A stretch of DNA of 64,000 bases from an uncultured Candidatus Saccharibacteria bacterium (GTDB lineage: Bacteria; Patescibacteriota; Minisyncoccia; Sungbacterales; HO2-52-23). How positions within the stretch are numbered: position 1 is the stretch's first letter; each line of letters opens with the position of its first letter. The translations under genes and the position numbers were made by a program. The notes under the pieces were generated by a model. It was not told where the DNA came from and made no database searches. It saw only the letters and a program-made list of their open reading frames with translations. Shown piece after piece: positions 4,253 through 58,961 of the stretch. The DNA lies in contig CAZPDF010000001.1 in NCBI GenBank assembly GCA_964585475.1, positions 81,337 through 145,336 on the forward strand. Reading direction: 5' to 3'.

Positions 4253-4325
4253 ATCCCGCACATAATTTGGACTACTAATTTGTAAGAGATCGGAGCGTTG
4301 TTACATATTTCATCGACCTTCAACC

Positions 4326-4399
4326 GTCATTCTGAACGCAGTGAAGAATCTCTATATATTTACTGGTGATTTGAGATCCTTCGCTTCGCTCAGGATGAC
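4326..4399. repeat. Family-A palindromic element (GTCATTCTGARCG-AGTGAAGAATCT ... GATCCTTCGCTTCGCTCAGGATGAC), intergenic
   Basis: Imperfect inverted repeat about 26 bp per arm. The same family occurs at 111-241, 11826-11939, 46158-46245 and 48679-48755. Confidence 0.7.
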
Positions 4400-4534
4400 G
4401 ATTAAATAAAGAATGTAAACAACACGATTAATTCCCACAACTAATTATCAAATAGCATATTTTATAATCATTGCTTGGCGTTCTGGGTTGTGTATAACTG
4501 CTAAGTCATCCACAGCTGCATAATTGTCTAAGTT

Positions 4535-25502: not shown

Positions 25503-25575
25503 ATGCTTTTGTCAGTCGTCATCCCGGCATATAACGAGTGGAAAACCATTCGTGCGATTGGAGCTAGTGACCCCG
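25503..25575 (+). pseudogene. Orphan 5' fragment of a GT2 glycosyltransferase gene (MLLSVVIPAYNEWKTIRAIG...) truncated by a palindromic element
   Basis: Near-identical to the N-terminus of the intact GT2 at 26299 ([19 protein letters not shown]). The frame runs into repeat 25571..25764. Confidence 0.5.
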
Positions 25576-25764
25576 TTAGAAATCCAGCCATGGCTATATT
25601 ATTAAGAAGGTAGAAAGGCGAAGCCCCGTTTGAAAGCTCGCATTGCAAGCATCTCGAAGTAAAAAATTGCCTGCGGTTTGACAAACAACTTTCTGACGAG
25701 GCGAAGCCGACTTACGTCTATCCGCTTCTTTAAACGAAGTACCTTTTTAAGATTTCTAACTGGG
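25571..25764. repeat. Family-B palindromic element (CCCCGTTAGAAATC...GATTTCTAACTGGG), 194 bp
   Basis: 14-bp terminal inverted repeats. Lies between the GT2 fragment and the TA cassette. Confidence 0.55.
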
Positions 25765-25771
25765 TTGACGT

Positions 25772-36120: not shown

Positions 36121-36290
36121 GACGAAATTTAATAAAAGGGGGCGATGCCCCTTTTGTGATTCGTCTATTTTGACTTGTCCCATTAGAAACGGAGTTTCTA
36201 ATGGGATTGCCAGCGATGCCCCACGCTTTCTTCAAGACGTTTGGTGACGTGTGCGGCGGCTTGATCGCTACCGCCAAATTGTTTGATTTT
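36121..36290. repeat. Left copy of a roughly 100-bp direct duplication (terminator hairpin + 3' end of the radical-SAM gene) flanking the DUF5678/protease cassette
   Basis: Matches 37255..37420 at about 85% (AAAAGGGGC-ATCGCCCCTTTTGTGATTC...ATTGCCAGCG.TG.CCCACGCTTTCTTC.AGACGTTT..TGACGTGT). Carries the frame of pseudo-ORF 36198..36440(-), which ends '...HVTKRLEESVGHRWQSH' versus the intact '...HVRKRLEESTGHRWQSK'. Confidence 0.55.
36124..36145 (+). terminator. Rho-independent terminator hairpin after neuB
   Basis: GGGGGC-GAT-GCCCC followed by TTTT. Confidence 0.55.
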
Positions 36291-37257: not shown

Positions 37258-37282
37258 AAAAAAGGGGCATCGCCCCTTTTGT
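37258..37282. terminator. Bidirectional terminator hairpin (GGGGC-ATC-GCCCC flanked by A/T runs)
   Basis: AAAAAAGGGGCATCGCCCCTTTT sits between the cassette and the 3' end of the minus-strand radical-SAM gene. Confidence 0.55.
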
Positions 37283-37297
37283 GATTCTTAATGGAAT

Positions 37298-38842
37298 TTA
37301 TTTGGATTGCCAGCGGTGACCCGTGCTTTCTTCCAGACGTTTCCTGACGTGTTCCGGTGGATTAACCGTCTCCCAAAACCAGTCGCGGATTTCCACAATC
37401 ATTTCTTTCGGCACGGTGGTATTTATCATAACTCCGTTTTTCCAGTTCATGATATCGGGGTCGAAATCAGACGGTAAATGTTTTCCTTTACAATCTGGGC
37501 AATCGAGCGCCATGTCATGTAGCTGACTTCCGGGAAAAGGAATGGGTATGAAAGGTGTGACGTACGCTGCACCCGCATCAATCAGTTTTCGTGCGAGTTC
37601 AACCGACATCATAATTTCCTTGAAGCTTTCATGTGGGAATCCGATCATCATATTGACCGGGCAGATGATGCCGATTTCTTTGGCGATGCGGGTGAGTTTC
37701 AACACGTCATGCTTCTCGAGCGTGAGTTTAGCGGTCGCGTATTTATCAAGAATCCTCTGTGATCCGGATTCTACCGGAAAGACAATCTGTCGAAACTTAG
37801 AATCATAGAAAAGCTGCAAATACTCGCGGTCCGGCTCAAGCGTTCCCGCTTTGGTCTTCTGGAATATGTGGACTAGATTCACGCCATTTACATCCGCAAT
37901 AGTAAAGTCAAAATCTCGCACCAGGGTGAAGATTTCTTTAGTCCGTGGTTTCTTGGCAAGCAAACTGTCGTCTTCGACAAGGACCATTTTTACGCCTAGT
38001 CTGCGAAGTTCTTCGAATTCAGCGATTACTCGGGAAACTGATTTCAAGCGAAGTTCGCCAATATCACCCGAAAGCTCACCCCTGCCGAAACGCTCTTTTG
38101 AAATGTGGCAGTAGGTGCATTGGAAAGGGCATCCGCGCGAGGTCATTATAGGCGCATAGCGGTATTGATTCCCTGTGAGGTTCACGCCGTGCGGGGAGGC
38201 AATGCGTTCGTACTTATCAAAAGGAAGTTTGTCCCAGGCAGGCATCGGCAAATCATCAAGGTTGGTGTAGGTGGTATCCGGTTTGGCCCGCGAGATTAGC
38301 GGTTTACCCGCGCGGAAATAAATGGTTCCGTCGATGTTCTCATAGGATGACCCTTGCATGAAGCGCCTGGCGATTTCTTGCATCGGTTTCTCGCCTTCGG
38401 TAGTGCAGACAAGATCGAAAGACCCGTTCTTCATGAAGCGCGGCCAGAGATTTCTCGCGTTTACTCCGCCGGTCACGACCAAAGTTTCCGGATTCACGCG
38501 CTTGGCGATCTCCGCCACCCTGAATGCCATATTGGTCTGCGGCGTGAAATTGGAGTTGATGCCCACGATATCGTAATTTTTCTTCGCCAGAAATTCTTCA
38601 ATTCGTTCCCACGACATTCCGATTCTCGTAAGACCATTTGGCTGCATAACCGAATTGTAGAATGTATTCTCAAGCGTATCCTCGGGCGTACCAACCGTTG
38701 CGTCCACTATATCCGAGTCAATTCCTATTTGGCGCAAGGCCCCGGCAAGATAGAGCGGCCCGAGCGAGCCGTCAGGGCGAGGCGTCTCAATAGGCATTAA
38801 CTGATTTGGAGGGTAGATGAAAAGAACCTTCGGCTCGCGCAT
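37298..38842 (-). CDS. B12-binding radical SAM enzyme (class B radical-SAM methyltransferase-like)
   Basis: N-terminal B12-binding 'NYDIVGINSNFTPQ...LVVTGGV'. CxxxCxxC 'SRGCPFQCTYCH'. Confidence 0.75.
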   Translation of the reverse strand: MREPKVLFIYPPNQLMPIETPRPDGSLGPLYLAGALRQIGIDSDIVDATVGTPEDTLENTFYNSVMQPNGLTRIGMSWERIEEFLAKKNYDIVGINSNFTPQTNMAFRVAEIAKRVNPETLVVTGGVNARNLWPRFMKNGSFDLVCTTEGEKPMQEIARRFMQGSSYENIDGTIYFRAGKPLISRAKPDTTYTNLDDLPMPAWDKLPFDKYERIASPHGVNLTGNQYRYAPIMTSRGCPFQCTYCHISKERFGRGELSGDIGELRLKSVSRVIAEFEELRRLGVKMVLVEDDSLLAKKPRTKEIFTLVRDFDFTIADVNGVNLVHIFQKTKAGTLEPDREYLQLFYDSKFRQIVFPVESGSQRILDKYATAKLTLEKHDVLKLTRIAKEIGIICPVNMMIGFPHESFKEIMMSVELARKLIDAGAAYVTPFIPIPFPGSQLHDMALDCPDCKGKHLPSDFDPDIMNWKNGVMINTTVPKEMIVEIRDWFWETVNPPEHVRKRLEESTGHRWQSK

Positions 38843-40610: not shown

Positions 40611-40632
40611 AAAGCCTGCATAAAGTTTGTTT

Positions 40633-40667
40633 TAACATTATTGATGCGGTCGCATCATCGATGTTAA
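40633..40667. promoter_or_regulatory. Palindromic operator TTAACAT-N3-TGATGCGGTCGCATCA-N3-ATGTTAA upstream of the wHTH regulator gene
   Basis: Nested dyad symmetry. A second copy lies at 41234..41269. Confidence 0.5.
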
Positions 40668-40682
40668 AATAAATTTATCCCC

Positions 40683-41210: not shown

Positions 41211-41233
41211 AGTCCAAGATTTTATTTTAAATT

Positions 41234-41269
41234 TTAACATCAAATATGCGGTCGCATGATAGATGTTAA
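41234..41269. promoter_or_regulatory. Second copy of the palindromic operator (TTAACATC-N4-ATGCGGTCGCAT-N4-GATGTTAA) upstream of the PP2C gene
   Basis: Near-identical to 40633..40667. Confidence 0.5.
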
Positions 41270-41343
41270 AATAAAGTGGTTTCTCTCAAAAGCTTGTAGC
41301 CAGGGTATCTTGTTTACATTGACAGAGGCGGTTCTTAGCGTTA

Positions 41344-46090: not shown

Positions 46091-46157
46091 TTTTGAACCT
46101 TATCAGGAAATTATTGAAAAGGCAAATAATTTAGGACTTACGCGTTTGGCCAATTTC

Positions 46158-46245
46158 GTCATTCTGAACGAAGTGAAGAATCTCGTTAACCAGACTTTTC
46201 TCGTTATACTGCCATCCGAGATCCTTCGCTAGCGCTCAGGATGAC
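46158..46245. repeat. Family-A palindromic element, intergenic
   Basis: GTCATTCTGAACGAAGTGAAGAATCTC...GAGATCCTTCGCTAGCGCTCAGGATGAC. Confidence 0.65.
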
Positions 46246-46326: not shown

Positions 46327-47634
46327 ATGTTTAAGGCGCAAAAGATAGCCGTTATTGGATTGTGGCATTTGGGGGAGACGTTTTCCGTGGGTCTTGCTGA
46401 ATTGGGACACAACGTAACGGGTTTCGATCCGAACCGCGAGGTTGTTGAGAATCTGGAGAAAGGTGTATTGCCGCTCGAGGAGCCCGGGCTTTCTGATCTG
46501 CTTAAGAAAAATCTTAAGGCAGGGCGTTTAAAATTCAGTACTGATTTTAGCGAGGTGGACAGTTGCAATGTTGTCTGGATCACTTTTGATACGCCGGTTA
46601 ATGACGAGGACGAGGCAGATATATCTGTGATATTAAAAACGGTTGAGGACATCCTGTCGTTCCTGCCCGACGGCGTCTTGATCATTTTGTCCAGTCAGTT
46701 GTCGGTCGGAACCTCGGGGCATATAAAAGAGATGATTAAAAAAGGCCGACCGTCTCTTAATTTTGACCTGGCTTACGTTCCGGAAAATCTGCAACTGGGT
46801 CGCGCATTGCAAAGTTTCTTTGAGCCGGAGCGAATTGTAATCGGGGCAGAAAATGAAAAAGTATTTTCTAATATTGAAAGCATCCTCGCGCTTCCCAACA
46901 CTATATTTTTGAGAATGAATTTGGCTTCGGCCGAAGTCGCTAAACACGCCCTGAATGCATTTTTAGCTACCTCGCTCACATTTATTTATGACATTGCTGA
47001 TCTTTGCGAGAAAGTGGGGGCAGATGTTGTGGAAGTTGCCCGCGCTCTTCGTTTGGATCCGCGCATCGGGCCCAGCGCTTACTTGGACGCCTCTATCGGC
47101 TTCTCAGGGGGAACGCTCGGCCGGGATCTTCAAGCCCTTTTGAAAAGAGCTAAGGAAGAGAGCGTTGAATTGCCTGTCATTGCGAGCGTTCTTGCCAAAA
47201 ACAAGTCGCGGCGCGATCTGGTTATAAAAGTGTTGGAGAGGGGTCTGGGGGATTTAGAAGGCAAGACCGTGGGGATCCTCGGCCTTACCTATAAAGCAGG
47301 AACCCCAACTTTAAGGAGGTCTTTGGCTCTTGAGATAGCCGGCAAGCTTAAGGAGGCGGGGGTTATCGTCCGCGCCTCCGATCCACAGGCACGGCGTGAG
47401 GAAGTAAGGAATAAAGGCATCGTTTTTTTCGCCGACCCCTACGAGATGGCGCGAGGCTGCGAAGCCCTGATTTTGGTAACCGCCTGGCCGCAGTTTGGGG
47501 AGATAGACCCGGCAAAACTCCGGGAATTATTGGAAGATCCCAAAATATTTTTTGACACCCGTAATTTTTTAAAAGGAAAAGAAAAAGAGTTTAAAGATGC
47601 CGGGATAAAGTATATTGGTATTGGCCGAGGTTAG
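46327..47634 (+). CDS. ugd: UDP-glucose/GDP-mannose 6-dehydrogenase family nucleotide-sugar dehydrogenase
   Basis: 'IAVIGLWHLGE' NAD-binding. 'GFSGGTLGRD' catalytic-region-like. C-terminal UDP-binding domain. Confidence 0.75.
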   Translation: MFKAQKIAVIGLWHLGETFSVGLAELGHNVTGFDPNREVVENLEKGVLPLEEPGLSDLLKKNLKAGRLKFSTDFSEVDSCNVVWITFDTPVNDEDEADISVILKTVEDILSFLPDGVLIILSSQLSVGTSGHIKEMIKKGRPSLNFDLAYVPENLQLGRALQSFFEPERIVIGAENEKVFSNIESILALPNTIFLRMNLASAEVAKHALNAFLATSLTFIYDIADLCEKVGADVVEVARALRLDPRIGPSAYLDASIGFSGGTLGRDLQALLKRAKEESVELPVIASVLAKNKSRRDLVIKVLERGLGDLEGKTVGILGLTYKAGTPTLRRSLALEIAGKLKEAGVIVRASDPQARREEVRNKGIVFFADPYEMARGCEALILVTAWPQFGEIDPAKLRELLEDPKIFFDTRNFLKGKEKEFKDAGIKYIGIGRG

Positions 47635-47642
47635 ATTTAAGG

Positions 47643-47780
47643 GCGTCGTTTACACTTTTTCGACACGTCTCGCGGATTCCAGCGATCCGCTCGCTAAGGG
47701 TCGGCAACGGTTTCGTCCCGACTAGTCGGGACGAACCAAGCAACCGTCGTCTCCCATTGTCGAAAAAGTGTAAGCAACGC
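47643..47780. repeat. Family-C MITE-like element with roughly 22-bp terminal inverted repeats (GCGTCGTTTACACTTTTTCGACA...TGTCGAAAAAGTGTAAGCAACGC)
   Basis: GC-rich interior with the perfect hairpin GTCCCGACTAGTCGGGAC. The terminal inverted repeats are related to the element at 57845..58265. Confidence 0.6.
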
Positions 47781-47793
47781 TCGCTGTTCTTAG

Positions 47794-48645
47794 ATGATGC
47801 TAAAGAATAAAAAAGCGATTATAACCGGAGGAGGTCGGGGAATTGGCAAGGCGGTGGCTGAAGCATTCGCTAAAGAAGGAGCGGATATTTTGTTGATTTC
47901 CCGTACCCGACAGGAGCTGGAGGCGACTAGTCGCGAATTGAGTCGTCAGGACCAGAGCGTAATAGTCGAGTCAGCCGATGTATCTAAAGTGGAGGACGTA
48001 GAAAACATCCGTAGAATTGTGCAAGAATCCTGGGGCCGAGTTGATATTTTAGTGAATGCGGCCGGCATATACGGACCCATAGGTTGCCTGGAGGATCTTG
48101 ATCTAGAGAATTGGATGCAAACTTTTTCGGTAAATATTTTCGGCACCGTACTTATGTGCCGTATGGCGCTGCCATTTATGAAAAAGCAAAAATGGGGGAG
48201 GATTATTAATTTTTCCGGAGGAGGTGAAGGCCCTCTGCCTAGATTCACCGCTTACTCTTCGTCCAAGGGAGCGGTGGTAAGGTTCACGGAGTCCTTGAAT
48301 GAGGAGGTCAAGGGGGACAATATTTGTGTAAACGCCATAACTCCCGGGCCCGTAAATACTGCCTTTTTGGAGGAGGTGCTCAAGGCCGGTTCGGAGCATG
48401 CAGGGGAAGATTTTTATCGCCAGGCCTTGGAGCAAAAAAAAGAGGGCGGGATTCCTCCGGAAAAAGCTGCGCGGCTTTGCTTATTTTTAGCAGGCGAGGA
48501 GGCCCACGGAATTGGCGGCAAAGTTTTGAGTGCCGTCTGGGATAATTGGCAGGATATTCCTAAGCATTTGAAGGAAATCATGGGATCGGATATATATAAT
48601 TTTAGAAGGATTAAACCAAGTGATCGCGGATATACCGGGTGGTGA
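47794..48645 (+). CDS. SDR-family oxidoreductase
   Basis: 'ITGGGRGIGKAVAEAF'. 'YSSSKGAV' YxxxK. Confidence 0.7.
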   Translation: MMLKNKKAIITGGGRGIGKAVAEAFAKEGADILLISRTRQELEATSRELSRQDQSVIVESADVSKVEDVENIRRIVQESWGRVDILVNAAGIYGPIGCLEDLDLENWMQTFSVNIFGTVLMCRMALPFMKKQKWGRIINFSGGGEGPLPRFTAYSSSKGAVVRFTESLNEEVKGDNICVNAITPGPVNTAFLEEVLKAGSEHAGEDFYRQALEQKKEGGIPPEKAARLCLFLAGEEAHGIGGKVLSAVWDNWQDIPKHLKEIMGSDIYNFRRIKPSDRGYTGW

Positions 48646-48646
48646 A

Positions 48647-48825
48647 CCCCGTTAGAAGTCTCAGCCCGTCCGAAAACTGTCATCCTGAGTGCTAACGAAG
48701 GATCTCTACCGTAGAAAATGGCTTAAATATTAGATTCTTCGCTTCGCTCAGAATGACAAAAATGTATTTTTAGGAGTTTTCGGACGGGCTGAGCAGATGC
48801 CTGCGGCATCTGACTTCTAACGGGG
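48647..48825. repeat. Composite nested palindromic element: family-B outer arms, a second inner inverted repeat (TCAGCCCGTCCGAAAAC/GTTTTCGGACGGGCTGA) and a family-A element at the core (48679..48755)
   Basis: Outer arms CCCCGTTAGAAGTC / GACTTCTAACGGGG. Inner family-A arms GTCATCCTGAGTGCTAACGAAGGATCTC / AGATTCTTCGCTTCGCTCAGAATGAC. Confidence 0.65.
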
Positions 48826-48833
48826 TGAAAATT

Positions 48834-49847
48834 ATGGCTGGTCATAAAAATAGAATAAATGTGGTGTTGGTTGGTGCGGGCGGTATGGGCCGGCGGTGGG
48901 CCGGTGTTGTGGCGAATCATAGTGCCGCGCGACTCGGCGCAGTAATTGATATTGATCTCAAAAAAGCGGAGGATCTTGCTAAAAATTTTGGCGCGAAGTC
49001 CTATAGTTCCCTGGAGGATTTAAAAAATATGCCGGATATAGATGCGGCGGTTATCGCTCTTCCCAATAAGTTCCTCGCCGAAGCAAGCAAATTTGCTCTT
49101 CTATCCGGCAAGCATGTTTTGGTGGAAAAGCCCGGGGCGACGTCCGTTCGGGAATTGCAGGAAGTGCTTGATCTTGCCTTGTCTCGAGACCTACGGATAG
49201 CCGTCAGTTACAATCACCGCTTTCATCCAGGGCCCAGGGAGGCAAGAAAATTGCTGGACAGCGGGTTTCTGGGGGAGCTTATGTTTATCCGGGCCCTTTA
49301 CGGTTTTGGCGGGCGCCCGGGATATGAGAAAGAGTGGCGTCACTCCCGGGAAATTTCTGGCGGGGGGGAGCTGATTGATCAGGGTGTGCATTTGATTGAT
49401 TTAGCCCGCTGGTTTCTGGGGGACGTGGCAGACGCCAAGGGTTTTATTGAAAGTGCTTTTTGGAAGTCCGAAGTTGAAGACAACGCTTTCCTGTTACTTA
49501 AAAATAAGGAAGGCAAGATTGCTTCTCTGCATGCTTCTTGGTCGCAGTGGAAGCCGACTCATACCCTCGAGATATACGGAACCGAGGGTTACGCTATAGT
49601 TGAGGGTCTTGGAAAAAAATATGGCGGACAAGAACGGGTTTTTTATGCGAAGCGCAAGGCGGATTTTTCTTTGCCCGAGGAAAACGTCATTGAATGCGAC
49701 AATGATGCGGATAAATCTCTATCGCGAGTCCTTGATGAATTTATCTCCTCTATTCAAGAGAAAAGAGAACCAAGCCCCGGCTCAAAAGACGCGCTTGAGG
49801 TTTTGAAGATCGTAGAAAAAGTTTACAATGACGTAGGGTCGCGCTAA
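48834..49847 (+). CDS. Gfo/Idh/MocA-family oxidoreductase (WbpB-like sugar dehydrogenase)
   Basis: 'INVVLVGAGGMGRRW'. 'HVLVEKP'. ATG at 48834 (the track starts at the GTG at 48825 inside the repeat). Confidence 0.7.
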   Translation: MAGHKNRINVVLVGAGGMGRRWAGVVANHSAARLGAVIDIDLKKAEDLAKNFGAKSYSSLEDLKNMPDIDAAVIALPNKFLAEASKFALLSGKHVLVEKPGATSVRELQEVLDLALSRDLRIAVSYNHRFHPGPREARKLLDSGFLGELMFIRALYGFGGRPGYEKEWRHSREISGGGELIDQGVHLIDLARWFLGDVADAKGFIESAFWKSEVEDNAFLLLKNKEGKIASLHASWSQWKPTHTLEIYGTEGYAIVEGLGKKYGGQERVFYAKRKADFSLPEENVIECDNDADKSLSRVLDEFISSIQEKREPSPGSKDALEVLKIVEKVYNDVGSR

Positions 49848-49874
49848 TAGATTAATTTGTCTGACAACCTTGTT

Positions 49875-50810
49875 ATGATTTCCATTGTATTTCCAGCCTA
49901 TAATGAGGAGGATAACGTTGCGGAACTGCATCGGCAGATTGTGGCGTCCATGCGACTTCAGAAGGACTCCTACGAGATTATAGCCATTGATAACGGTTCA
50001 ACGGACAAGACGTTAGCGCGCCTTAAGGGGCTTTCTCCCATAAAAATTATTGTATTTCCCAGAAACTTCGGGCAGACCTCGGCCTTGGATGCGGGAATTC
50101 ATTCGGCGCGGGGAGACATAATAGTGACTCTGGATGCTGATTTGCAAAATGACCCTGCAGACATTCCCCGCCTTATCGAGAAACTTGACGAGGGGTATGA
50201 CTGCGTGGTCGGTTGGAGAAAGAGTCGGCATGATTCTTTGGGAAGAGTGATACTTTCTCGCGCGGCCAATTGGCTTACCCGGCGGGTGAGCGGGCTCGAC
50301 CTCCACGATTTTGCCTGCGCTCTTAAAGCATTCAAAAAAGAATACATGAAAGATGTTCATTTATACGGCGAGATGCATGTTTTTCTGCCGGCGATTTTAT
50401 TTGCCCGCGGAGCGAAGATTGCCGAGATTCCCGTGCGGCATAGCGAGAGGAAGCATGGCGTCTCAAAGCACTATTTTTTTAAGGCCGTAAAAGACATTGC
50501 CGACCTTTTCACAGTTAAGTTCCTTTTTAGCTACACGGCGCGTCCCCTTATATTTTTTGGCGGGCCGGGGATCTTGAGCGTGTTGCTCGCCTTTGCATTT
50601 GCCGCATTGGCGGTTATATCAACTTTTATGGAAGGAATTCATATTATAGAATCTCCCTATACCTATTTAGCCATGACTTTTTTTCTGGCCGGTTTCATTC
50701 TGCTCATGATGGGATTTATGGTGGAGATGCTGGTACGCGTGTATTATGAGGGGCGCTATATGCTGCCTTATGTGGTAAGCGATATAGTAGAGAATAAACC
50801 CCGCCCTTGA
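49875..50810 (+). CDS. GT2-family polyprenyl-phosphate glycosyltransferase with C-terminal TM helices (GtrB/ArnC-like)
   Basis: 'ISIVFPAYNEEDNV'. 'IIAIDNGSTDKT'. 'LDADLQNDP'. Two C-terminal TMs. Confidence 0.75.
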   Translation: MISIVFPAYNEEDNVAELHRQIVASMRLQKDSYEIIAIDNGSTDKTLARLKGLSPIKIIVFPRNFGQTSALDAGIHSARGDIIVTLDADLQNDPADIPRLIEKLDEGYDCVVGWRKSRHDSLGRVILSRAANWLTRRVSGLDLHDFACALKAFKKEYMKDVHLYGEMHVFLPAILFARGAKIAEIPVRHSERKHGVSKHYFFKAVKDIADLFTVKFLFSYTARPLIFFGGPGILSVLLAFAFAALAVISTFMEGIHIIESPYTYLAMTFFLAGFILLMMGFMVEMLVRVYYEGRYMLPYVVSDIVENKPRP

Positions 50811-50886
50811 TTGTGGAGCATTAAGCCCTGCTGTAAGGACTACTATCAACGCTTCGGTAATCCTGCGTCACGACCGCGAGACATTC

Positions 50887-50913
50887 ACCCCGCCCTTTTC
50901 CGAAAGGGCGGGG
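50887..50913 (+). terminator. Terminator-like hairpin (CCCCGCCCTTTTCCGAAAGGGCGGGG) inside the family-D GC-rich motif
   Basis: Perfect 10-bp stem. There is no strong T-run, so confidence is low. Confidence 0.35.
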
Positions 50914-50964
50914 TTCAAGAGCGGGGTAAAGAAAAAGTTTAAGACAACAATTTTTTACCGGAAA

Positions 50965-51708
50965 ATGGAAGAATATGAATATAGTAATTTGGCGCGTAGA
51001 GAATCTTTCTATTTTTGGAATATAGGCAGGAGAGAGATTCTGCGGGATGCGTTGCGGAGGCACCTTTCCCCTTCTTTGACGCGCGAGATCTTGGACATAG
51101 GATGCGGCCCCGGCGGAAACATTTTGATTTTGCAGGAATTCGGACGGGTGACCGGCCTCGATATATCGGAATCGGCTCTTTCTTTTGCCAAAAACCGGGG
51201 CTTTGCCCGGTTGATTAGCGCTTCGGCCGAGAATATTCCTTTTCCGGATGCATCTTTTGATATGGTGAGCGCCTTAGATATGTTGGAACATGTTGAAGAA
51301 CAAGAAAAAGTTCTGGCGGGTGCGTTCAGGATTTTAAAGACCGGCGGGATCTTTTTGGTAACTGTTCCCGCGCATCCTTGGCTTTGGAGCGCTCATGATG
51401 AGGCCCTGCACCATCTTAGGAGATATGCGCAAAAAGACATAATTCTCAAATTGGAGAAGGCGGGTTTTCGGGTGCTCGAAAAAAGCCATTTTGTAACCGT
51501 GGCTGTTCTGGTGAATTATTTGCGGTTGTTTCGTGATAAGATTTTTTCCGGCGCTCAAAAAAAGGATAAAGCTAAGACCTATGACGTCGAATTTCCGGTT
51601 CTTCTTAATTCCCTGCTTTTATTTATCTTGCGCTGTGAGAAAGTATTTATCAGATTTTTCTCGATCCCACTGGGAAGTTCTCTTATGTTGGTCGTCCAAA
51701 AACCATGA
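50965..51708 (+). CDS. Class I SAM-dependent methyltransferase
   Basis: 'ILDIGCGPGGN'. 'LKTGGIFLVTVP'. Confidence 0.6.
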   Translation: MEEYEYSNLARRESFYFWNIGRREILRDALRRHLSPSLTREILDIGCGPGGNILILQEFGRVTGLDISESALSFAKNRGFARLISASAENIPFPDASFDMVSALDMLEHVEEQEKVLAGAFRILKTGGIFLVTVPAHPWLWSAHDEALHHLRRYAQKDIILKLEKAGFRVLEKSHFVTVAVLVNYLRLFRDKIFSGAQKKDKAKTYDVEFPVLLNSLLLFILRCEKVFIRFFSIPLGSSLMLVVQKP

Positions 51709-51710
51709 GT

Positions 51711-51826
51711 CCCGTTAGAAGCCGCGATCGCATATCAAAAATAACAAATATCTATAATGTACAACACTTTAGTTATAAATAACCCACGTGGATCGGATCA
51801 CTTGATCGCGATCTGCTTCTAACGGG
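51711..51826. repeat. Family-B-variant palindromic element (CCCGTTAGAAGC...GCTTCTAACGGG) with nested inner inverted repeat (CGCGATCG) and an AT-rich core containing TATAAT
   Basis: 12-bp terminal inverted repeats. Fills the intergenic gap exactly between the methyltransferase stop and the GT39 start. Confidence 0.6.
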
Positions 51827-53344
51827 ATGAGATTAGAAAAAAAAGAGGCGTTCCTCATCATTTTTACGATCGTTTCCGTGTCAGCTCTATTTTTGCTGAT
51901 TTATTTTTATTTCGGTCCGGAAAATTATTACTGGGGCGGATTTGACTTCATAGAGTACGACATCCTAGGAAAGAATCTCGCTGAAGGCAACGGTTTTTCT
52001 TTGCGGGAGGCGCCTCCTTATTTGCCGAGCGCCACCCGTCTGCCCGGCTACCCGCTGCTGCTCGCTTTATCCAAAATACTAATTGGCAGCAACGTTTTGG
52101 TTTTGGCGCTGCAGATCATTTTTCTTGGCTTGATTGCTCTCCTAACTTATAGAATTTCGTTTTACCTTTTTTCCAGTGTAACTCTTTCGATGCTAGCGGC
52201 TTTGTTTATGGTTTTTGACCCGGACCATCTTCTTAATACTTTAATGCTTATGAGCGATTTGATTGCCGCTGGATTTTTACTGCTCTCTTTATATTTTTTG
52301 CTTAAATTTGCGGAGCGTAATCCGCCGAGCGAAGGAGAGGCGGGGTTTAAATATTTCTATTTAGCCGTAGCAAGTTTGGTTCTTTCGTCTTTCATAAGAC
52401 CCACGCCGCTATTGCTGATTTTCTTGTACGGCTCTATGTTTTTATGGGTTAGTTTCCGAATCAAAGTTCCAATGCGAAAAATCATTTATGGCGGGTGCTT
52501 AGTGTTTTTGATCGTAGCGCTCCCTTTTGGTTTCTGGCTTGGACGCAATTATAAAGCTTTTGGCATATTGTCTCTGACCTCTTCCGGCGGAATAGCACAG
52601 TTTCTCTCCATCTCCCCTGCGGTAAGAGCCCTTGGAGAGGGCATATCTCAAGGGGAAGCAAGGAAGAGGTCCTTTGCGGAATTTCGCAGAGAAATGAATT
52701 TGGAGCCGTTTCCCGACTTTCCCAATGTTTTTTATAGGCAGGACCTTGACTCGCTGACCTGGTTTATGATCACGGAGAATTTTTCCTACGGTGATTGGGC
52801 CTTGAAACATGCGCGTGCCATTTTCCGCAAATACCCCGGAGAGTATTTAAGGGTTTCTGCCGTATCGGGCCTTGACTTTCTTACCGAGGCCAACTGGTCT
52901 AATTTATTGGAGCAGTACGGCCTGCTTCGTTTTTACGATCGGCCCTCGCAGCCCTTGCGCGAGATTTTAGCCATGGCCAATTGGGGGGAGTTGGGATCGG
53001 CCCTGAAGGAAAGATTTTTTTGCAGTTTTAGATGCGTAACGGCTTTTATTCTGACAACCATAGGCAGAGTTTATTGGATAGCGATGACTATCGGCGCGGT
53101 TTTTGGCTTTTATTATTTTTTCCGCGACCGGAAATTAATTAATAAAAGATTGCCTGCACTGATTATTTTATTCTGCATTCTTTATACGGTGGCAGTACAC
53201 GTTTATTTAATTGGACCGTCTACCCAGCCGCGCTATCGTCTGCCTATAGCGCCCTTCCTCGTCATGTTCGGCTTGTACGGAGTGTGGTTTATGAAGAAGC
53301 GGATTTTTACAAAACGCGCGCTTGACGAATTTCAAATAGTGTGA
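51827..53344 (+). CDS. GT39/ArnT-like integral-membrane glycosyltransferase
   Basis: Multi-TM. 'LGKNLAEGNGFSL' N-region similar to 27149(-) 'LTAKNIVAGNGFSGS'. Confidence 0.5.
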   Translation: MRLEKKEAFLIIFTIVSVSALFLLIYFYFGPENYYWGGFDFIEYDILGKNLAEGNGFSLREAPPYLPSATRLPGYPLLLALSKILIGSNVLVLALQIIFLGLIALLTYRISFYLFSSVTLSMLAALFMVFDPDHLLNTLMLMSDLIAAGFLLLSLYFLLKFAERNPPSEGEAGFKYFYLAVASLVLSSFIRPTPLLLIFLYGSMFLWVSFRIKVPMRKIIYGGCLVFLIVALPFGFWLGRNYKAFGILSLTSSGGIAQFLSISPAVRALGEGISQGEARKRSFAEFRREMNLEPFPDFPNVFYRQDLDSLTWFMITENFSYGDWALKHARAIFRKYPGEYLRVSAVSGLDFLTEANWSNLLEQYGLLRFYDRPSQPLREILAMANWGELGSALKERFFCSFRCVTAFILTTIGRVYWIAMTIGAVFGFYYFFRDRKLINKRLPALIILFCILYTVAVHVYLIGPSTQPRYRLPIAPFLVMFGLYGVWFMKKRIFTKRALDEFQIV

Positions 53345-53377
53345 TAGCGTCACCCCAGTACACTAGAGGATTGATAT

Positions 53378-53782
53378 ATGGATCAGCTTCTAATTGCGGT
53401 AGTTGCATGGGCACTCAGCAATTTCTTTATGAAGCTCTCATTGTTTTATCTCAACGGAATCTCTGCAGTGAGCTGGCAGGTTTTGGGAATTATAGTAATG
53501 ATGAGTTTCATCCTTGGGTGGGAAGGTTTTAGCATCGAGCGAAATGTTCGTGGAGCGTCTTGGGCTTTTGCCTCTGGATTACTCACTATATTTGCTGCAT
53601 ACATTTTCTGGCAAGCTCTTCGATCAATAAAACTATCCGTTGCGATGCCCTTTGTAACATTAAACTACGGATTGACTGCGCTTTTGGGCATCGCTATTCT
53701 TCGCGAAGCCCTCATGCCTATACAGTTGGCTGGGGGTGCACTTATGCTGATTGGCGCAGTACTATTAAGTATGCAAAAATAA
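53378..53782 (+). CDS. Small 4-TM EamA/SMR-like transporter (ArnE/ArnF-like lipid-linked sugar flippase subunit)
   Basis: 134 aa with four hydrophobic helices. Immediately downstream of the ArnT-like gene. Confidence 0.45.
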   Translation: MDQLLIAVVAWALSNFFMKLSLFYLNGISAVSWQVLGIIVMMSFILGWEGFSIERNVRGASWAFASGLLTIFAAYIFWQALRSIKLSVAMPFVTLNYGLTALLGIAILREALMPIQLAGGALMLIGAVLLSMQK

Positions 53783-53870
53783 AAAATACGGGCTCTGCCC
53801 GTTTTTGTTTTTTACCCCGTTTCGTTCTATACTGAAATATACTCAGCAAATTATTTTGATAGAATGCAAA

Positions 53871-53926
53871 CCCCGTTACTTGACCGCAGTCGAGTCAGAC
53901 TCGACCACAGGGCATTCAAGTAACGG
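53871..53926. repeat. Family-B-variant palindromic element (CCCCGTTACTTGA...TCAAGTAACGG) with inner hairpin GTCGAGTCAGACTCGAC
   Basis: Lies in the 5' leader of the IMPase-family gene. Confidence 0.55.
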
Positions 53927-53957
53927 AGTAAATAACTGCATTCTCAATAATTTCTTT

Positions 53958-54743
53958 ATGGACTACAAAAAGTTTATTCTGGGTCTTGCCAAAGAGGCAG
54001 GAACGGTTATTAAAAAAAACTTTACGCGCGGCATGAAAAAAGAATGGAAAGATGGCGTTTCGGTGGTTACCGAGACTGATCGCATCATAAATCAGATGGT
54101 TATTGACAGCGTGAAAAAAACCTTCCCAGGGCATAGTATTCTTGCCGAGGAGAACAGTGATTTATCCGGTGATAATGAATTTATTTGGGTATGCGATCCA
54201 GTAGACGGGACAAAACCATTTGCACATGCCATACCCACTTGTGTATTTTCACTGGCTCTTACGCGACGAGGACAGAGTATCGCGGGAGCCGTCTACGATC
54301 CATTCATGGAAAGAATGTTTTTTGCGGAAAAAAATAAAGGAGCCTCTTTGAACGAAGAAAAGATAAAAGTTTCTTCGCAAAATACAATTAAAAATTCCTT
54401 GTTTGGAGTCTGCTATGGATGGAGAGATGAACCATTTGATTTTTCCGCACTGGGCCAAGCGCTGAAAACCGAATCTGGAGAGATCATAGACGTAGGTTCA
54501 ATAACCTATATGGGCGTTTTGGTGGCAGCGGGTGAATTAGCGGGTACGATGTTTCAAGGCACTAAACCATACGACACCGCAGCGCTAAAAGTGATCGTGG
54601 AAGAAGCTGGCGGGAAAGTTACTGATCTTTTCGGCAATGACCAACGTTATGATAGAGACATTCGCGGGCACCTCATTTCAAACGGATTACTGCACGATCG
54701 ACTACTTGAGATGCTGCGTACAACAGTCAGAGAAATTGAATAA
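53958..54743 (+). CDS. Inositol-monophosphatase/CysQ-family phosphatase
   Basis: 'WVCDPVDGTKPF' (DPxDGT). 'ILAEENSD'. 'VTETDRIINQ'. Confidence 0.6.
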   Translation: MDYKKFILGLAKEAGTVIKKNFTRGMKKEWKDGVSVVTETDRIINQMVIDSVKKTFPGHSILAEENSDLSGDNEFIWVCDPVDGTKPFAHAIPTCVFSLALTRRGQSIAGAVYDPFMERMFFAEKNKGASLNEEKIKVSSQNTIKNSLFGVCYGWRDEPFDFSALGQALKTESGEIIDVGSITYMGVLVAAGELAGTMFQGTKPYDTAALKVIVEEAGGKVTDLFGNDQRYDRDIRGHLISNGLLHDRLLEMLRTTVREIE

Positions 54744-54850
54744 TAATACATATCTAAGTTTATCTGCTCGGGATAAATTCTCTTTACAGTTCTGGATAAC
54801 GAATCCTTGACTTTTTATCATAAAATCAGTACACTGCACACAGTTCTTCA

Positions 54851-55648
54851 TTGGGGCATGCCATGGAGCGAATGACTGCAATCGATAGAGAGATCCATAT
54901 GCTAACTGGCCATGTAAACGCCGGTAAATCTACTTATTTTGGGTTCTTGAGCAAATTGCCAGAATACCAAGGATCAGATGTCTTTAAGACTTCGACAGAC
55001 ACGGTTCGCGTGCGTCACTACGCCAACCGCGTCTCGCCTCCGGCAGAAGACAACACCCTTGGTCATCTTGCTCTTTATAATTTGCTTACCAACTGGGAAA
55101 CGTGCGTTTACAATGACGAGCTTTTGTACGTTGACACGGAACGGGCCGTCCTAGTAGATCAGGTGAACAAAGTATTGCTAGATACAGTGGTACGAAGCAG
55201 GAAACTGCATCAAAGAAAACTGGCAGACATGGTTAAAAGAGTCGAATATGGATTACGCCGGATTGAGAAAGAACTAGCGGCAAAACGCGGAGTATTACCG
55301 CCTGACCCGCCCTCAAAGGTGAATTTGCGCGTAGTGCTGCTCTTCTGTGACTTTGAGACTGCCAGACGTAGAATGCTAGCACGATTCGAGCACGCCGTGG
55401 AGAAGGAGCAGGCACTCGTTGCTCTTGCAGAAAGCATAATACCTTACGAGGTGCCTACTGCTTATCCGTTTCTTGCGATCGACACTTCGGACGAAAGTTC
55501 TTCTGCTTCCGAGAAAAGGAAGCTGGAAATACTGGACTTTTTTGCAGGTCATGCGCCCGACCTATCGCTAATGGCCGCGCGCGCAAAAGAAGCAAAACAA
55601 TGTATCGCTGCCGCTAAAATAACAGCTAGAAAATGGTTTAAGAAATAG
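54851..55648 (+). CDS. P-loop NTPase/kinase-like hypothetical protein
   Basis: Walker A 'GHVNAGKST' near the N-terminus. No further family assignment possible by eye. Confidence 0.3.
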   Translation: MGHAMERMTAIDREIHMLTGHVNAGKSTYFGFLSKLPEYQGSDVFKTSTDTVRVRHYANRVSPPAEDNTLGHLALYNLLTNWETCVYNDELLYVDTERAVLVDQVNKVLLDTVVRSRKLHQRKLADMVKRVEYGLRRIEKELAAKRGVLPPDPPSKVNLRVVLLFCDFETARRRMLARFEHAVEKEQALVALAESIIPYEVPTAYPFLAIDTSDESSSASEKRKLEILDFFAGHAPDLSLMAARAKEAKQCIAAAKITARKWFKK

Positions 55649-55751
55649 ATATCCCTTGAAGGAAAAACCTGCCTGTATTACCGGGCAGGATTTTTGTTAC
55701 TTAAAATATATGTGCTGTGTTGAGATATCTAAACGTATCCAGTAGGTGAGC

Positions 55752-55780
55752 TTGACAAGATGGCCGCTTTTTAGTATTAT
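55752..55780 (+). promoter_or_regulatory. Sigma70-like promoter TTGACA-17-TATTAT upstream of the second IMPase-family gene
   Basis: 'GAGCTTGACAAGATG' resembles the sequence at 42855 upstream of the hypothetical gene 42920. Confidence 0.4.
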
Positions 55781-55810
55781 CCGTAGAGTTCCACGTAGAG
55801 GTAAATATTC

Positions 55811-56752
55811 ATGCAGGTACGGTTGGGTCTTTTTTCTCCTCTTGTGCAGAATGCCGCAAACGCAGTTATACTGGCCGGAATTACGGCTTCTCGCATCGGA
55901 TTTTCCAAAAAGCCGCTCAAGTCAGAAAAAAAATTCGATGCGGGATATGGCCACGTTGCGACAACTACGGCGGCGGATCACATTGCACAAAGAATGATTC
56001 TGCGGTTTCTAAGCCGTAGATCTCATCAAGCCAGGTTTCTTACGGAAGAGAAGGCGGAGAAGATGGATGCCAAGATCGTTCAAGGAGTTATTACTGCAAA
56101 AGATTTTCATACCATCGCCCAAGGTGTTGTCTACGGCATTGATCCTATTGACGGAACGAGCATGTTCAAGAATCGTCTTTGGGAGTGGAGCAGTTCGGTC
56201 GGGGTCATGGTGGATGGGCAGCACATCGGAGGCGCAATATTTGCCCCGATGCTTCGTGGAGGAATTCTCTTGGTGGGTGAGAGAGGAAAAGGAGTTATGA
56301 TGTTTGAAAATAGCGGCAAGGTGAAAAGCAGGCCCGTGGTACCCTTTAATCAAAAGCCAAAGGACAGCGTTGTTTATATCGGGCCGGACATTTTCTTTCT
56401 GAATAAATTTGCCCCGTTTATGTCCGAGATTGGGCCGCAGTTGAGAACCATGAATTGTACTGGTTCCTGCGCCGTTGGCTTGGCGTATGTTGCAGCCGGA
56501 AGGATTGATGCTCTTATCCAACCCGCTCAGAAGGCCTGGGATTGGTTTGCCGGGTATCCCTTGGTTGAAGGAGTAGGGGGCAAGATGCAATGTTACCATT
56601 ATAGAGACGGAGCCATTGTGCCGCTTAATGCCCCGGATATTGCAAGTTACGACCCTAGTTGTCCCAACATGGCTTTTATTGCCGGAGTTCCTTCATTGGT
56701 GGATTTTCTTTTTGAAACTCTTAAGAAGACGTATCAAGTCTCAGCCGCTTAA
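55811..56752 (+). CDS. Inositol-monophosphatase-family phosphatase (paralog)
   Basis: 'GIDPIDGTSMF'. 'FLTEEKAE'. 'ATTTAADHIAQ'. Confidence 0.5.
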   Translation: MQVRLGLFSPLVQNAANAVILAGITASRIGFSKKPLKSEKKFDAGYGHVATTTAADHIAQRMILRFLSRRSHQARFLTEEKAEKMDAKIVQGVITAKDFHTIAQGVVYGIDPIDGTSMFKNRLWEWSSSVGVMVDGQHIGGAIFAPMLRGGILLVGERGKGVMMFENSGKVKSRPVVPFNQKPKDSVVYIGPDIFFLNKFAPFMSEIGPQLRTMNCTGSCAVGLAYVAAGRIDALIQPAQKAWDWFAGYPLVEGVGGKMQCYHYRDGAIVPLNAPDIASYDPSCPNMAFIAGVPSLVDFLFETLKKTYQVSAA

Positions 56753-56812
56753 CCAGCGGCTTTTTTACTGTAAAACAAAATGGTATGGTAGTTTCGTTAT
56801 ATTATAAAATCT

Positions 56813-57820
56813 ATGAGGGCATTTAAAAAATCAATTGCGGTTTCAAAAACTCCGTATAGGATTAATCTTGCCGGCGCGACAGATCTTATTCCGTATGTCA
56901 AGCGGTTTGGAGGAGACGCTCTTTCGGGAGCCATTGATAAATATGTGACGATTGTGGCTCAGCGTAGGGGCGACAGAAAAATTGTATTCCATAATGCTTT
57001 GAAGACGGAGGAGGCGCTGGAGGCGCGCCGGATTAACCAGCCGCACGTGCGCTCTGTCTTGGAGCACGTCGGAATAAATTCGGGAGTGGATATTGCGTCT
57101 TTCACCGATGCGCCTTTGGCTTCCGGTCTCGGATCCTCCGGGTCTTTTGTGGTAGGGCTTCTTAATGCCCTCTGGACGCTTCAGGGGCGGAAAAAAGACC
57201 CGCGCGACCTCGCGGAAGAAGCTGCGCATATCGAGATTAAGAAACTAAATTCTCCCATAGGAAAGCACGATCAGTATCTCGCGGCCTACGGCGGGATTTG
57301 TAAACTCTCGTTCCTTCGGAACGGGAGCGTTGAGGTTAAGAAGGTTGTTTTTAAGAAAAATGAGAAAGAAGTTTTCGAAAAAATGGTTCTCCTTGTATAC
57401 AGCGGAGTATCGAGGCCGGCCAACCAAATGCTAAGTCCGGTCGAGCGTAAGCTCCAAGAACTAAATCCTAAAATTGTCACTGCTATGCATTCTTTCCGTG
57501 AGATTAGCAGTCAAACCGCCGGACTCCTGGTGCAAAGAGATTTTTCGTCATTCGGGGCGAGTTTAAACGATCTTTGGGAGGTTGAGAAAAAAACTTTTTC
57601 CAACAGCAACGAGCGGCTGGACGAGCTTATCAATGCCGGAAAGAAGCAGGGCGCCATAGGCGGGCTTGTGGTGGGTGCCGGAGGAGGCGGCTTTTTGTAT
57701 CTGGTCTGCCCGGACCAGAGGACCAGATTACAGGTTTCGCGGACACTTGAGCGCATGGGTGCGACCGAATATCCTTTTTCTTTTGCGGAAGAGGGAAGCA
57801 AAATAATTTTTTCCCAATAG
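56813..57820 (+). CDS. GHMP-family sugar kinase (D-glycero-D-manno-heptose 7-phosphate kinase HddA-like)
   Basis: 'PLASGLGSSGSFVVGLLNAL' GHMP motif 2. 'GGLVVGAGGGGF' motif 3. Confidence 0.65.
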   Translation: MRAFKKSIAVSKTPYRINLAGATDLIPYVKRFGGDALSGAIDKYVTIVAQRRGDRKIVFHNALKTEEALEARRINQPHVRSVLEHVGINSGVDIASFTDAPLASGLGSSGSFVVGLLNALWTLQGRKKDPRDLAEEAAHIEIKKLNSPIGKHDQYLAAYGGICKLSFLRNGSVEVKKVVFKKNEKEVFEKMVLLVYSGVSRPANQMLSPVERKLQELNPKIVTAMHSFREISSQTAGLLVQRDFSSFGASLNDLWEVEKKTFSNSNERLDELINAGKKQGAIGGLVVGAGGGGFLYLVCPDQRTRLQVSRTLERMGATEYPFSFAEEGSKIIFSQ

Positions 57821-57844
57821 ATTCTTTTATAATAAGAAATAGCT

Positions 57845-58265
57845 GCGTTGTTTACACTTCCTATTTCCACCACCGCGCGGGAATCCCTCGGCGTATACCT
57901 TCTCTCGGTACGGCTATCGCCCCGACCAGCGTCGGGGCTCACCTCCCGTGCGCTTCCTCGCTCTCCCGCTTAGAGCGGGAACCATGCCCGCTCGGTCGCG
58001 CAAGGCCCTCGATAAGGCATACGCCTCGGCCCGCGCGGGAGAGAATGTAGATAGAGGATTTTCTCATCGCGGTCGAGCTCCGCTCTTGAGAAAAAGAATC
58101 AGAAGGGACGCTGAAGTGAGGGGCCGGTGATAAGATATTGTCCTGTTGCGGCCCGGATGCTTAGCGAGGCGGAGATTAAAAAAGTTTAAACTTGCCCAAA
58201 GCCCGCCGAGCGTCTTTTTCTCAAGGGCGGGGCGAGGGGGCCGCGATGAGAAGTGTAAACAACGC
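57845..58265. repeat. Family-C MITE-like GC-rich structured element (421 bp) with 16-bp perfect terminal inverted repeats GCGTTGTTTACACTTC / GAAGTGTAAACAACGC
   Basis: The interior is clearly GC-rich, with hairpins GCCCCGACCAGCGTCGGGGC, CCCGCTTAGAGCGGG and CGCGCGGG/CCCGCGCG. Sits between the kinase and nucleotidyltransferase genes. Confidence 0.55.
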
Positions 58266-58283
58266 AACCATTTTTATAATGAT

Positions 58284-58961
58284 ATGAAAGCAGTTATTCT
58301 TGCGGCAGGGGAGGGAAGAAAAATGCGGCCTCTTACGCTCACGGCCCCAAAACCACTGCTTGAGGTGCAGGGTAAAAAACTGATCGATTATGTATTTGAC
58401 GCCCTGCCCCCAGAAATAGACGAGGTGATTGTCTCGGTTAAATATCTTGCGGATAAAATCAAATCGTATCTTGGCGATTCGCATAAAGGGAGGAAAATTC
58501 ATTACGTTGAAGGTTCGGAGAAGGGGAACGCGGTTGGACTTCTGAATGCGCGGGAATTTTTTAAAGAAGGGGAGAGGTTTTTCATTTTTTATGGAGATGA
58601 GCCCCAGCGGCGGGAAGAAATCGAGGAATGTCTCGCTCATAAGTTTGCGTGGGTATGCTCACGGGTTTCTGATCCCCGTACGAGCGGCGTTGCGATAACC
58701 GATGTCCAAAGAAGGATCCTTGAAGTTATTGAAAAACCGGAGCTTCCGAAGTCAAACTGGTCAGCTATGGGGACGATCCTGGTTAACACGGACATTTTTT
58801 CCTACCAGCCGGAGTTGCATTCAAGCGGCGAGTATCATCTGTCCTCAATGCTCAATCGTTTTATAAAGGACCATTCGGTCTTTATGGTGTTCGGAAAACC
58901 GAGGCCCCCGTTTCGTTCCCCGGGCGATATCAACTGGAACATGGAGGATTTTTTAACATGA
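58284..58961 (+). CDS. Sugar-1-phosphate nucleotidyltransferase (HddC/RmlA-like)
   Basis: 'MKAVILAAGEGRKMRPLTLTAPKPLLEV'. Confidence 0.7.
   Translation: MKAVILAAGEGRKMRPLTLTAPKPLLEVQGKKLIDYVFDALPPEIDEVIVSVKYLADKIKSYLGDSHKGRKIHYVEGSEKGNAVGLLNAREFFKEGERFFIFYGDEPQRREEIEECLAHKFAWVCSRVSDPRTSGVAITDVQRRILEVIEKPELPKSNWSAMGTILVNTDIFSYQPELHSSGEYHLSSMLNRFIKDHSVFMVFGKPRPPFRSPGDINWNMEDFLT

Follow-up and report, generated by a model that had tools for sequence, protein, structure and literature searches.

We analysed a window of 64,000 nucleotides (64 kb) from the genome of an uncultured Candidatus Saccharibacteria bacterium (assembly GCA_964585475.1, contig CAZPDF010000001.1, positions 81,337 to 145,336). 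It contains two copies of a repeat here called family C, a small one (c1) and a large one (c2); all positions below are those of the window. Our results indicate that both elements are, with high probability, miniature inverted-repeat transposable elements (MITEs), that is, non-autonomous elements with a replaced interior that derive from a compact insertion sequence (IS) of the IS481 family. A preliminary description of this DNA had put a MITE-like non-autonomous element first among its readings, and this is now strengthened by further copies, a cognate IS, 7-bp duplications, empty sites and conserved interiors. It had also proposed looking for additional copies and a cognate transposase, and both were found in public genomes and metagenomes, with no transposase in the window. 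Nor do the copies stand alone with an idiosyncratic structure, the outcome named there as contrary to the MITE reading: copies occur in many genomes, and two related elements (L196 and L193) keep the interior structure through compensatory base pairs.

The terminal inverted repeats ascribed to the two copies in the preliminary description are confirmed by counts. The 15-base sequence GCGTYGYTTACACTT, with up to 2 mismatches allowed, matches the window exactly four times, at 47643 (+), 47766 (-), 57845 (+) and 58251 (-), where 0.32 matches are expected; none of 100 shuffled sequences reached four. The four matches pair up in inverted orientation (47643/47766 and 57845/58251), and an independent repeat search of the window recovered both pairs (I22 and I6). 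Comparison with about 70 related elements shows a terminal inverted repeat of 29 nt, with these 15 bases as its inner core and a further 14 nt beyond the core at each end. The limits first given for the copies, 47643-47780 and 57845-58265, hold as core-to-core spans; as full extents they fall 14 nt short at each end. In c1, the outer 14 nt read GGTTAGATTTAAGG and, as reverse complement, TCTAAGAACAGCGA, agreeing at 10 of 14 positions each with their counterparts in L126 (TGTAAGATTTAATA and TGTAAGAATCGCCA); they follow the family consensus at positions 4-8 and depart from it at the TGT terminus. At c2, the left outer repeat AATAAGAAATAGCT agrees at 10 of 14 positions with TGTAAGAAATAGTC, the IS end in L104, and the right one is AACCATTTTTATA.

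Elsewhere, the family could be defined from 72 unique complete elements (144 ends), whose repeat consensus is TGTARGAAW-n5-GCGTTGTTTACACTT-TT. Conservation is nearly complete at the tips (T1 in 142/144 ends, G2 in 143/144, T3 in 144/144), and each core position is kept in at least 138 of the 144 ends. The metagenome pattern demanded an ACA terminus, while the genome scan set no condition on element termini and found TGT at every end but one. Perfect 7/7 flanking duplications accompany 21 of the 72 unique complete elements and 6/7 duplications 6 more, against 1 of 71 in a shifted control; the duplicated 7-bp targets are AT-rich and fit nnTWAnn. Genomes in GTDB yielded 25 paired-core loci (gap pattern 101-161 nt), mostly from Neisseriaceae (Kingella, Eikenella and Neisseria mucosa; core-to-core distance 176-177 nt). 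The other hosts are a zetaproteobacterium and metagenome-assembled genomes (MAGs) of Peregrinibacteria, Competibacter, Cardiobacteriaceae and Hydromonas. In metagenomes, the pattern core-N11-ACA was found at 120 loci at least. In IMG/VR the exact 15-mer was found at 64 loci, most of which look like chance matches, with the motif recurring in identical flanks of related contigs; among these loci, L038 has two inverted cores 177 nt apart and L016 a truncated copy. An inverted pair in L045 (2157 bp, 3 mismatches) was judged to be due to chance.

The metagenome loci also revealed the putative parent. In about 20 of the loci among the matches listed, the cores lie about 860 bp apart and flank a single open reading frame (ORF). 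In L178 the IS spans positions ~4410-5296 (887 bp) and encodes one protein of 268 amino acids; ISs with an identical core and outer repeat are also present in L127, L129, L141, L104 and others. The 268-aa protein matches Pfam rve and rve_3 above the Pfam cut-offs, and its best NCBIfam model is the IS481 transposase (NF033577), which scores 183.9 bits where IS3 reaches 74 and IS21 33. Residues D104, D168 and E208 are invariant in 12 aligned sequences that are 58-89% identical to the L178 protein. The transposase would belong to a divergent or compact IS481 subgroup, apparently an unnamed one. A large protein database holds 1701 homologues, and the only names attached to them are "transposase InsO family protein" and "transposase-like protein". 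The best 120 of the 1701 are 71-90% identical and lie mostly on contigs of 0.9-1.3 kb, as expected of a repeat that breaks assemblies. In most of 11 aligned ISs, an inverted copy of the core, GTGTAAACAA, follows the 5' core by about 20 nt and abuts the ATG, and the transposase stop codon lies within the 3' core (AAC TGT AAA..., read ..CTG TAA). These overlapping roles offer a plausible reason for the invariance of the 15 bases across phyla. One further locus, L133 (29-2026), looks like a nested IS insertion: a different rve-type transposase gene (336 aa) interrupts the transposase gene of a copy of the IS481-type IS.

The mechanism that we propose relies on analogy with DDE transposases of the IS3/IS481 type. 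The parent IS, of about 887 bp, has 29-nt repeats (5'-TGT...ACA-3') with the invariant core and encodes one 268-aa transposase, in which an N-terminal helix-turn-helix region precedes the rve catalytic domain with its DDE triad. Supplied in trans, the transposase would bind the core of each inverted repeat and cleave at the terminal CA-3'. The ends would then be joined to an AT-rich nnTWAnn target cut with a 7-bp stagger, giving rise to the 7-bp duplication. In this genome, c1 probably inserted where a UDP-sugar dehydrogenase gene meets a short-chain dehydrogenase (SDR) gene, and c2 between a heptose-type kinase gene and that of its nucleotidyltransferase. The two elements are small (166 and 448 bp) and lack the capacity to code for a transposase; tblastx of c2 against L196 shows no consistent frame. 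A tblastn search of the window with the 268-aa protein gave no match (best E = 0.28). As the window contains no cognate transposase, c1 and c2 are non-autonomous.

Related genomes provide empty sites for c2, the copy to which the comparison of presence and absence at the orthologous site applied. Between the kinase and NTP-transferase genes of the window lie 463 bp; the corresponding spacer is 29 bp long in L211 and 8 bp long in L218. The L211 proteins are 67% (kinase) and 65% (NTP-transferase) identical in amino acids to those of the window. Since the spacers of these relatives amount to only 8 and 29 bp, the 448 bp of c2 are an insertion. Two more distant kinase homologues, L212 and L219, were left out for lack of synteny. 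At the same junction in L213 (66% kinase identity), positions 3443-3556 hold a family-B-like palindrome with the ends CCCGTTAGAGAC...GTCTCTAACGGG instead of a family-C element, and small palindromic elements seem to land repeatedly in this short kinase/NTP-transferase spacer. A Logan contig of identical sequence (L001) stops 22 nt into the left repeat of c2. Exact-protein look-ups of four flanking genes returned no record, and that of the kinase only this same Logan contig.

Coordinates of the two copies and of the adjacent genes are collected in Table 1. Gene coordinates and domain matches agree with the earlier statement that the large copy separates the GHMP kinase and nucleotidyltransferase genes. 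The kinase homologues are named D-glycero-alpha-D-manno-heptose-7-phosphate kinase by the Joint Genome Institute (JGI), and the labels of the closest homologues that bear one point to a Patescibacteria-like host. Further genes of the cluster around c2 code for HAD phosphatases, a SIS-domain protein and a transaldolase. At c1, the last codon and the stop codon of the dehydrogenase gene (47629-47634) fall within the left outer repeat, and the last base of c1 is the A of the SDR gene ATG. We infer that both copies are transcribed within the operon mRNA.

Table 1. Positions of the two family-C copies, their parts and the genes beside them
Feature	Position	Strand	Size	Remarks
UDP-glucose/GDP-mannose dehydrogenase gene	46327-47634	+		upstream of c1
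c1, full extent	47629-47794		166 bp	core pair plus 14-nt outer repeats
c1, left core	47643-47657	+		GCGTCGTTTACACTT; 1 mismatch to the family core
c1, interior	47658-47765			branched GC-rich palindromic module; hairpins 47672-47690 and 47711-47735 (CCCGAC-TA-GTCGGG)
c1, right core	47766-47780	-		GCGTTGCTTACACTT; 1 mismatch to the family core
SDR gene	47794-48645	+		downstream of c1
GHMP (heptose-7-phosphate-type) kinase gene	56813-57820	+		ends 10 nt before c2
c2, full extent	57831-58278		448 bp	exact core pair plus outer repeats
c2, left core	57845-57859	+		GCGTTGTTTACACTT; exact
c2, left GC-rich domain	57873-58039			closed by CCGCGCGGG...CCCGCGCGG (predicted fold)
c2, hairpins in left domain	57919-57938; 57964-57980			first: GCCCCGAC-CAGC-GTCGGGGC
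c2, right GC-rich domain	58065-58248		184 nt	closed by CATCGCGG...CCGCGATG
c2, right core	58251-58265	-		exact
NTP-transferase gene	58284-58961	+		starts 5 nt after c2

Several observations weigh against assigning c1 and c2 to an IS481-type MITE family. The terminal trinucleotides at all four window ends are altered (GGT, TCT, AAT and TAT, not TGT). Changes affect 5 of 12 terminal positions against 2 of 60 core positions (Fisher p = 0.001), so the core is kept far better than the termini, unlike what simple neutral decay would lead one to expect. No clean 7-bp duplication flanks either copy, the flanks being TGGCCGA/TGATGCT at c1 and CTTTTAT/ATGATAT at c2. Membership of c1 and c2 thus rests on the core, on outer positions 4-8 and on homologous copies elsewhere, the hallmarks in the window not being intact. 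In the source organism, the search for a cognate transposase covered 64 kb of a 150.6-kb contig and gave no match. The parent protein scores below the curated IS481 cut-off of 224, owing to an alignment confined to positions 104-283 of the 284 in the model. Finally, the MITE explanation accounts neither for where the GC-rich interior came from nor for any function that it may have. Two direct repeats, TTAGAT at c1 and TTTTATAAT at c2, were considered as target duplications and dropped; they overlap the degenerate repeat ends. Given the loss of the TGT/ACA ends, the lack of a clean duplication and the absence of a transposase from the window, c1 and c2 are most likely immobile relics, probably old, no longer mobilisable and fixed.

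As the preliminary description had it, the large copy is GC-rich: its interior reaches 60.4% GC, against 46.6% for the window and 39% for the parent IS. The strong structure noted at the time is equally clear from folds compared with shuffled controls. The 421-nt span of c2 folds at -204.5 kcal/mol (z = -6.2) and its opposite strand at -202; the 138-nt span of c1 folds at -69.0 kcal/mol on the plus strand (z = -8.3) and at -68.6 on the minus strand (z about -7). The CCCGAC-loop-GTCGGG hairpin, described before in both C copies and in a family-B copy (family B being another palindromic repeat of this genome), was recovered by pattern matching: two matches (57921-57936 in c2 and 3468-3484 in family B) against 0.02 expected, plus the c1 version with TA as its loop. 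This shared hairpin looks like one of several interchangeable GC-rich modules rather than evidence that B and C form a single family.

Homologues of both interiors were found within other family-C elements. A 472-bp element in L196, with intact TGT...ACA ends and a 6/7 target duplication, is a homologue of c2. Its positions 1926-2104 are 69% identical over 186 nt to the right domain of c2, with which they share long identical blocks (e.g. GCTTAGCGAGGCGGAGAT and CCGCCGAGCGTCTTT), and its left half matches the architecture of the left domain. Both elements have the two-domain layout, and 20 of 99 predicted pairs have changed on both sides with pairing kept. The c1 interior is homologous to that of the L193 MITE, where such two-sided changes affect 7 of 42 pairs. 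These comparisons of sequence show that the interior structure is conserved among related elements through compensatory changes. The intact ends and 6/7 duplication of the L196 element imply that the long GC-rich form travels as transposon cargo, moving as a unit. The interiors are cargo of a MITE sub-lineage and not transposase remnants, since they show no protein similarity and have 60% GC against 39% for the IS. A coding role for the c2 interior was considered and rejected, as its tblastx alignment with L196 switches frames. BLAST of the c2 cargo against all fetched loci retrieved L196 alone, and two motif scans of IMG/VR gave only chance matches in coding DNA. A covariance model of the c2 right domain found, in 0.53 Mb scanned, only its two training sequences.

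Conserved structure raises the question of whether c1 and c2, or their interiors, are a functional structured or cis-regulatory RNA domesticated from a MITE, with the core kept as closing stem; it might serve as an insulator, as an attenuator or as a hairpin for processing or stabilisation. The very stable folds (z from -6 to -8), an architecture kept with compensatory changes in L196 and L193, and the long identical blocks common to c2 and L196, which look single-stranded, are in line with such an RNA. So are the preservation of the core beside destroyed transposition termini (p = 0.001) and the position of both copies in operons whose genes run in one direction, the next start codon lying within 0-5 nt of the end of the element. 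However, the Rfam covariance check suggested in the preliminary description gave no match: with Rfam 15, the whole window has none at the gathering threshold, and even at E up to 10 the region 57600-58500 shows only noise of 17 bits or less. Scans for promoter and terminator consensus found no site inside c1 or c2. Both strands fold equally well, which argues for a DNA palindrome rather than a strand-specific RNA, and the L196 copy appears to be oriented opposite to c2 relative to the nearest gene. Moreover, orthologous operons work with spacers of 8-29 bp, the covariance model detected no copies outside a MITE context, and in L196 the interior travels between intact ends with a duplication. 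We therefore regard a functional RNA as very unlikely; the structured ncRNA and the transcriptional insulator offered as alternatives in the preliminary description find no support in the Rfam search, the promoter and terminator scans or the strand comparison. The features of the interior fit a DNA-level palindromic cargo. A related reading, in which the interior (two-domain in c2 and L196, one-domain in c1 and L193) is a selected functional RNA or DNA module riding an IS481-type MITE in Patescibacteria and domesticated in the window operons, its core stem being retained while the ends needed for transposition are disabled, also seems improbable to us; if it were true, the module might act in mRNA processing, stability or decoupling between adjacent sugar-nucleotide genes.

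The layout of c2 also allows a refinement of the MITE explanation, by which its 421 nt would be a composite: a short family-C MITE later invaded by one or two unrelated palindromes. We consider this possible, though doubtful. The interior consists of two independently closed domains, 57873-58039 and 58065-58248; nesting has a precedent in this genome, where a family-A palindrome lies inside a family-B element at 48645-48830, and the family-C MITE of L092 contains a family-A-like unit. Mini MITE forms of 89 bp exist, and the c1 interior includes a part similar to a module from the left-hand half of the L196 element. On the other hand, neither inverted repeats nor duplications of an inner element could be defined, and neither domain was found alone by BLAST of the fetched loci or by the 0.53-Mb covariance scan. 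Besides, the two-domain layout predates the split between c2 and L196, being already present in their common ancestor.

Other forms of the family were observed along the way. A 205-bp foldback sub-family is multi-copy in Neisseriaceae genomes (L068-L090; Kingella, Eikenella and Neisseria). By BLAST, this Neisseria-type MITE has no match in PLSDB plasmids or GenBank phages, so that this search yielded no annotated IS name. A copy of the 205-bp type with a perfect CATTAAC duplication sits in a phage-like contig (L038, 11730-11934); it is flanked on one side by a Com-type zinc-ribbon gene and on the other by a gene that matches D12 adenine methyltransferases weakly and below the threshold. The copy at 8609-8855 of L149 is of the Neisseriaceae type, with an expanded (CAAAAA)n microsatellite, and the 89-bp mini forms (L138, L175, L185 and L186) consist of little beyond the two inverted repeats. 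A near-identical short interior is common to L066 (2349-2513; a Peregrinibacteria MAG) and L080 (3522-3681; a MAG of Competibacter, Gammaproteobacteria), implying either horizontal spread or a binning error. In the full-text literature, a search for the repeat sequence found only an unrelated cassava primer, and the MITE term occurs in none of the 15 top-ranked papers of a search on Patescibacteria, the candidate phyla radiation (CPR) and Parcubacteria. The family appears to be undescribed so far.

The window contains several other palindromic repeats. One of them, family B (ACCCCGTTAGAAGTC...GACTTCTAACGGGGT), constitutes another MITE-like family, with an interior of interchangeable hairpin modules. 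Its copies (28221-28297, 31286-31360, 48645-48830, 25569-25769 and 51708-51829, with a solo end at 18311) lie directly after stop codons, three with apparent 2-bp flanking repeats (CA, TG and GA). Family A palindromes (GTCATTCTGAGCGNAGCGAAGAATCTC and its inverse) occur at 101-211, 4316-4399, 11816-11927, 46148-46245 and 48679-48758, the last being the copy nested in family B. Another family-B element, at 3449-3529 (CCCCGCTAGAAGTC...GACTTCTAACGGGG), has two GC-rich hairpins and is contained in frame within a plus-strand ORF (1772-4252; 826 aa, a fusion of two GT4 glycosyltransferase units), to which it adds about 27 residues and no stop; in this it resembles Rickettsia palindromic elements. The same ORF includes a second GC-rich palindrome (~1881-1945, CGCACAGAAAGGCC...GGCCTTTTGTGCG), in frame near the N-terminus, which forms a low-complexity stretch ahead of the Pfam GT4 match. 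A 45-nt palindrome (TTTTAACAT...GCGGTCGC...ATGTTAAAA) has two copies 602 bp apart (40626-40673 and 41231-41275), and two further repeats of 29-54 nt stand about 1.1 kb apart (36134-36252 and 37259-37352). That several GC-rich palindrome families sit exactly at gene junctions, and that some palindromes lie in frame within genes, is more unusual than family C itself.

This repertoire also bears on whether c1 and c2 could be palindromes akin to repetitive extragenic palindromes (REPs) and bacterial interspersed mosaic elements (BIMEs), spread by a REP-associated tyrosine transposase (RAYT)/HUH enzyme or by recombination, their likeness to IS ends being coincidental. Families A and B, with their interchangeable GC-rich hairpins, one type of which is found in both B and C, agree with such an origin. 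In contrast, a transposase-bearing IS has ends with an identical 15-nt core and outer pattern, family members carry the TGT...ACA ends and 7-bp duplications that typify DDE transposition and not REPs, and a chance match of four 15-mers is excluded. A REP/BIME origin is largely refuted already, and we give it hardly any credence.

Taken as IS481-type MITEs, the family-C elements give a name and a mechanism to an assembly-breaking repeat, which also inflates the intergenic spacers of the small genomes of Patescibacteria. They lead to a very compact, previously unnamed IS481-type IS that is abundant in environmental metagenomes, and whose MITEs span from Patescibacteria to human-associated Neisseriaceae with the 15-bp core unchanged. 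The definition of the repeat (TGTARGAAW-n5-GCGTTGTTTACACTT) together with the 7-bp duplication is directly usable for annotation. MITEs inside operons are well known, and family C is an ordinary kind of element in this respect; there is no evidence here of a host function for it.

Among known systems, the parent IS compares best with the IS481 family, whose members usually measure about 950-1300 bp. At 887 bp and 268 aa it is unusually small. Its single-ORF DDE (rve) transposase has IS481 as best profile, at a score below the curated cut-off, and its TGT...ACA termini, its inverted repeats shorter than 50 bp and its 7-bp duplication all agree with the family, for which TGT...ACA ends and a target duplication of 2-15 bp, mostly 6 bp, have been described (PMC10045372). 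The 7-bp duplication differs from the 6 bp of most IS481 members (PMC10045372). A further difference lies in the branched, GC-rich cargo carried by the Patescibacteria-type MITEs, which is not derived from the IS.

Family C also shares traits with the Correia elements or Neisseria miniature insertion sequences (NEMIS): both are small elements with inverted repeats at their ends, dispersed between genes and within operons and transcribed together with their neighbours, and the 205-bp sub-family is abundant in Neisseriaceae. Correia/NEMIS elements of Neisseria have an unrelated inverted repeat, TATAGTGGATTAA..., and a TA duplication, and are not known to have a parent transposase. Family C has instead the repeat TGTAGGAAATCGTC-GCGTTGTTTACACTT, a 7-bp duplication and a parent IS.

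With REPs, BIMEs and enterobacterial repetitive intergenic consensus (ERIC) sequences, family C has in common that they are stable hairpin-forming repeats between co-transcribed genes, able to affect mRNA. REPs are units of 20-40 nt spread by RAYTs, with neither long terminal repeats nor target duplications. Family C differs by its 29-nt terminal repeats, its 7-bp duplications and its DDE parent; a RAYT association was not searched for. Finally, the GC-rich palindromes lying in frame within a coding gene (3449-3529 and ~1881-1945) liken this genome to those with Rickettsia palindromic elements, the difference being that in-frame insertion here concerns families other than C, both C copies being intergenic.

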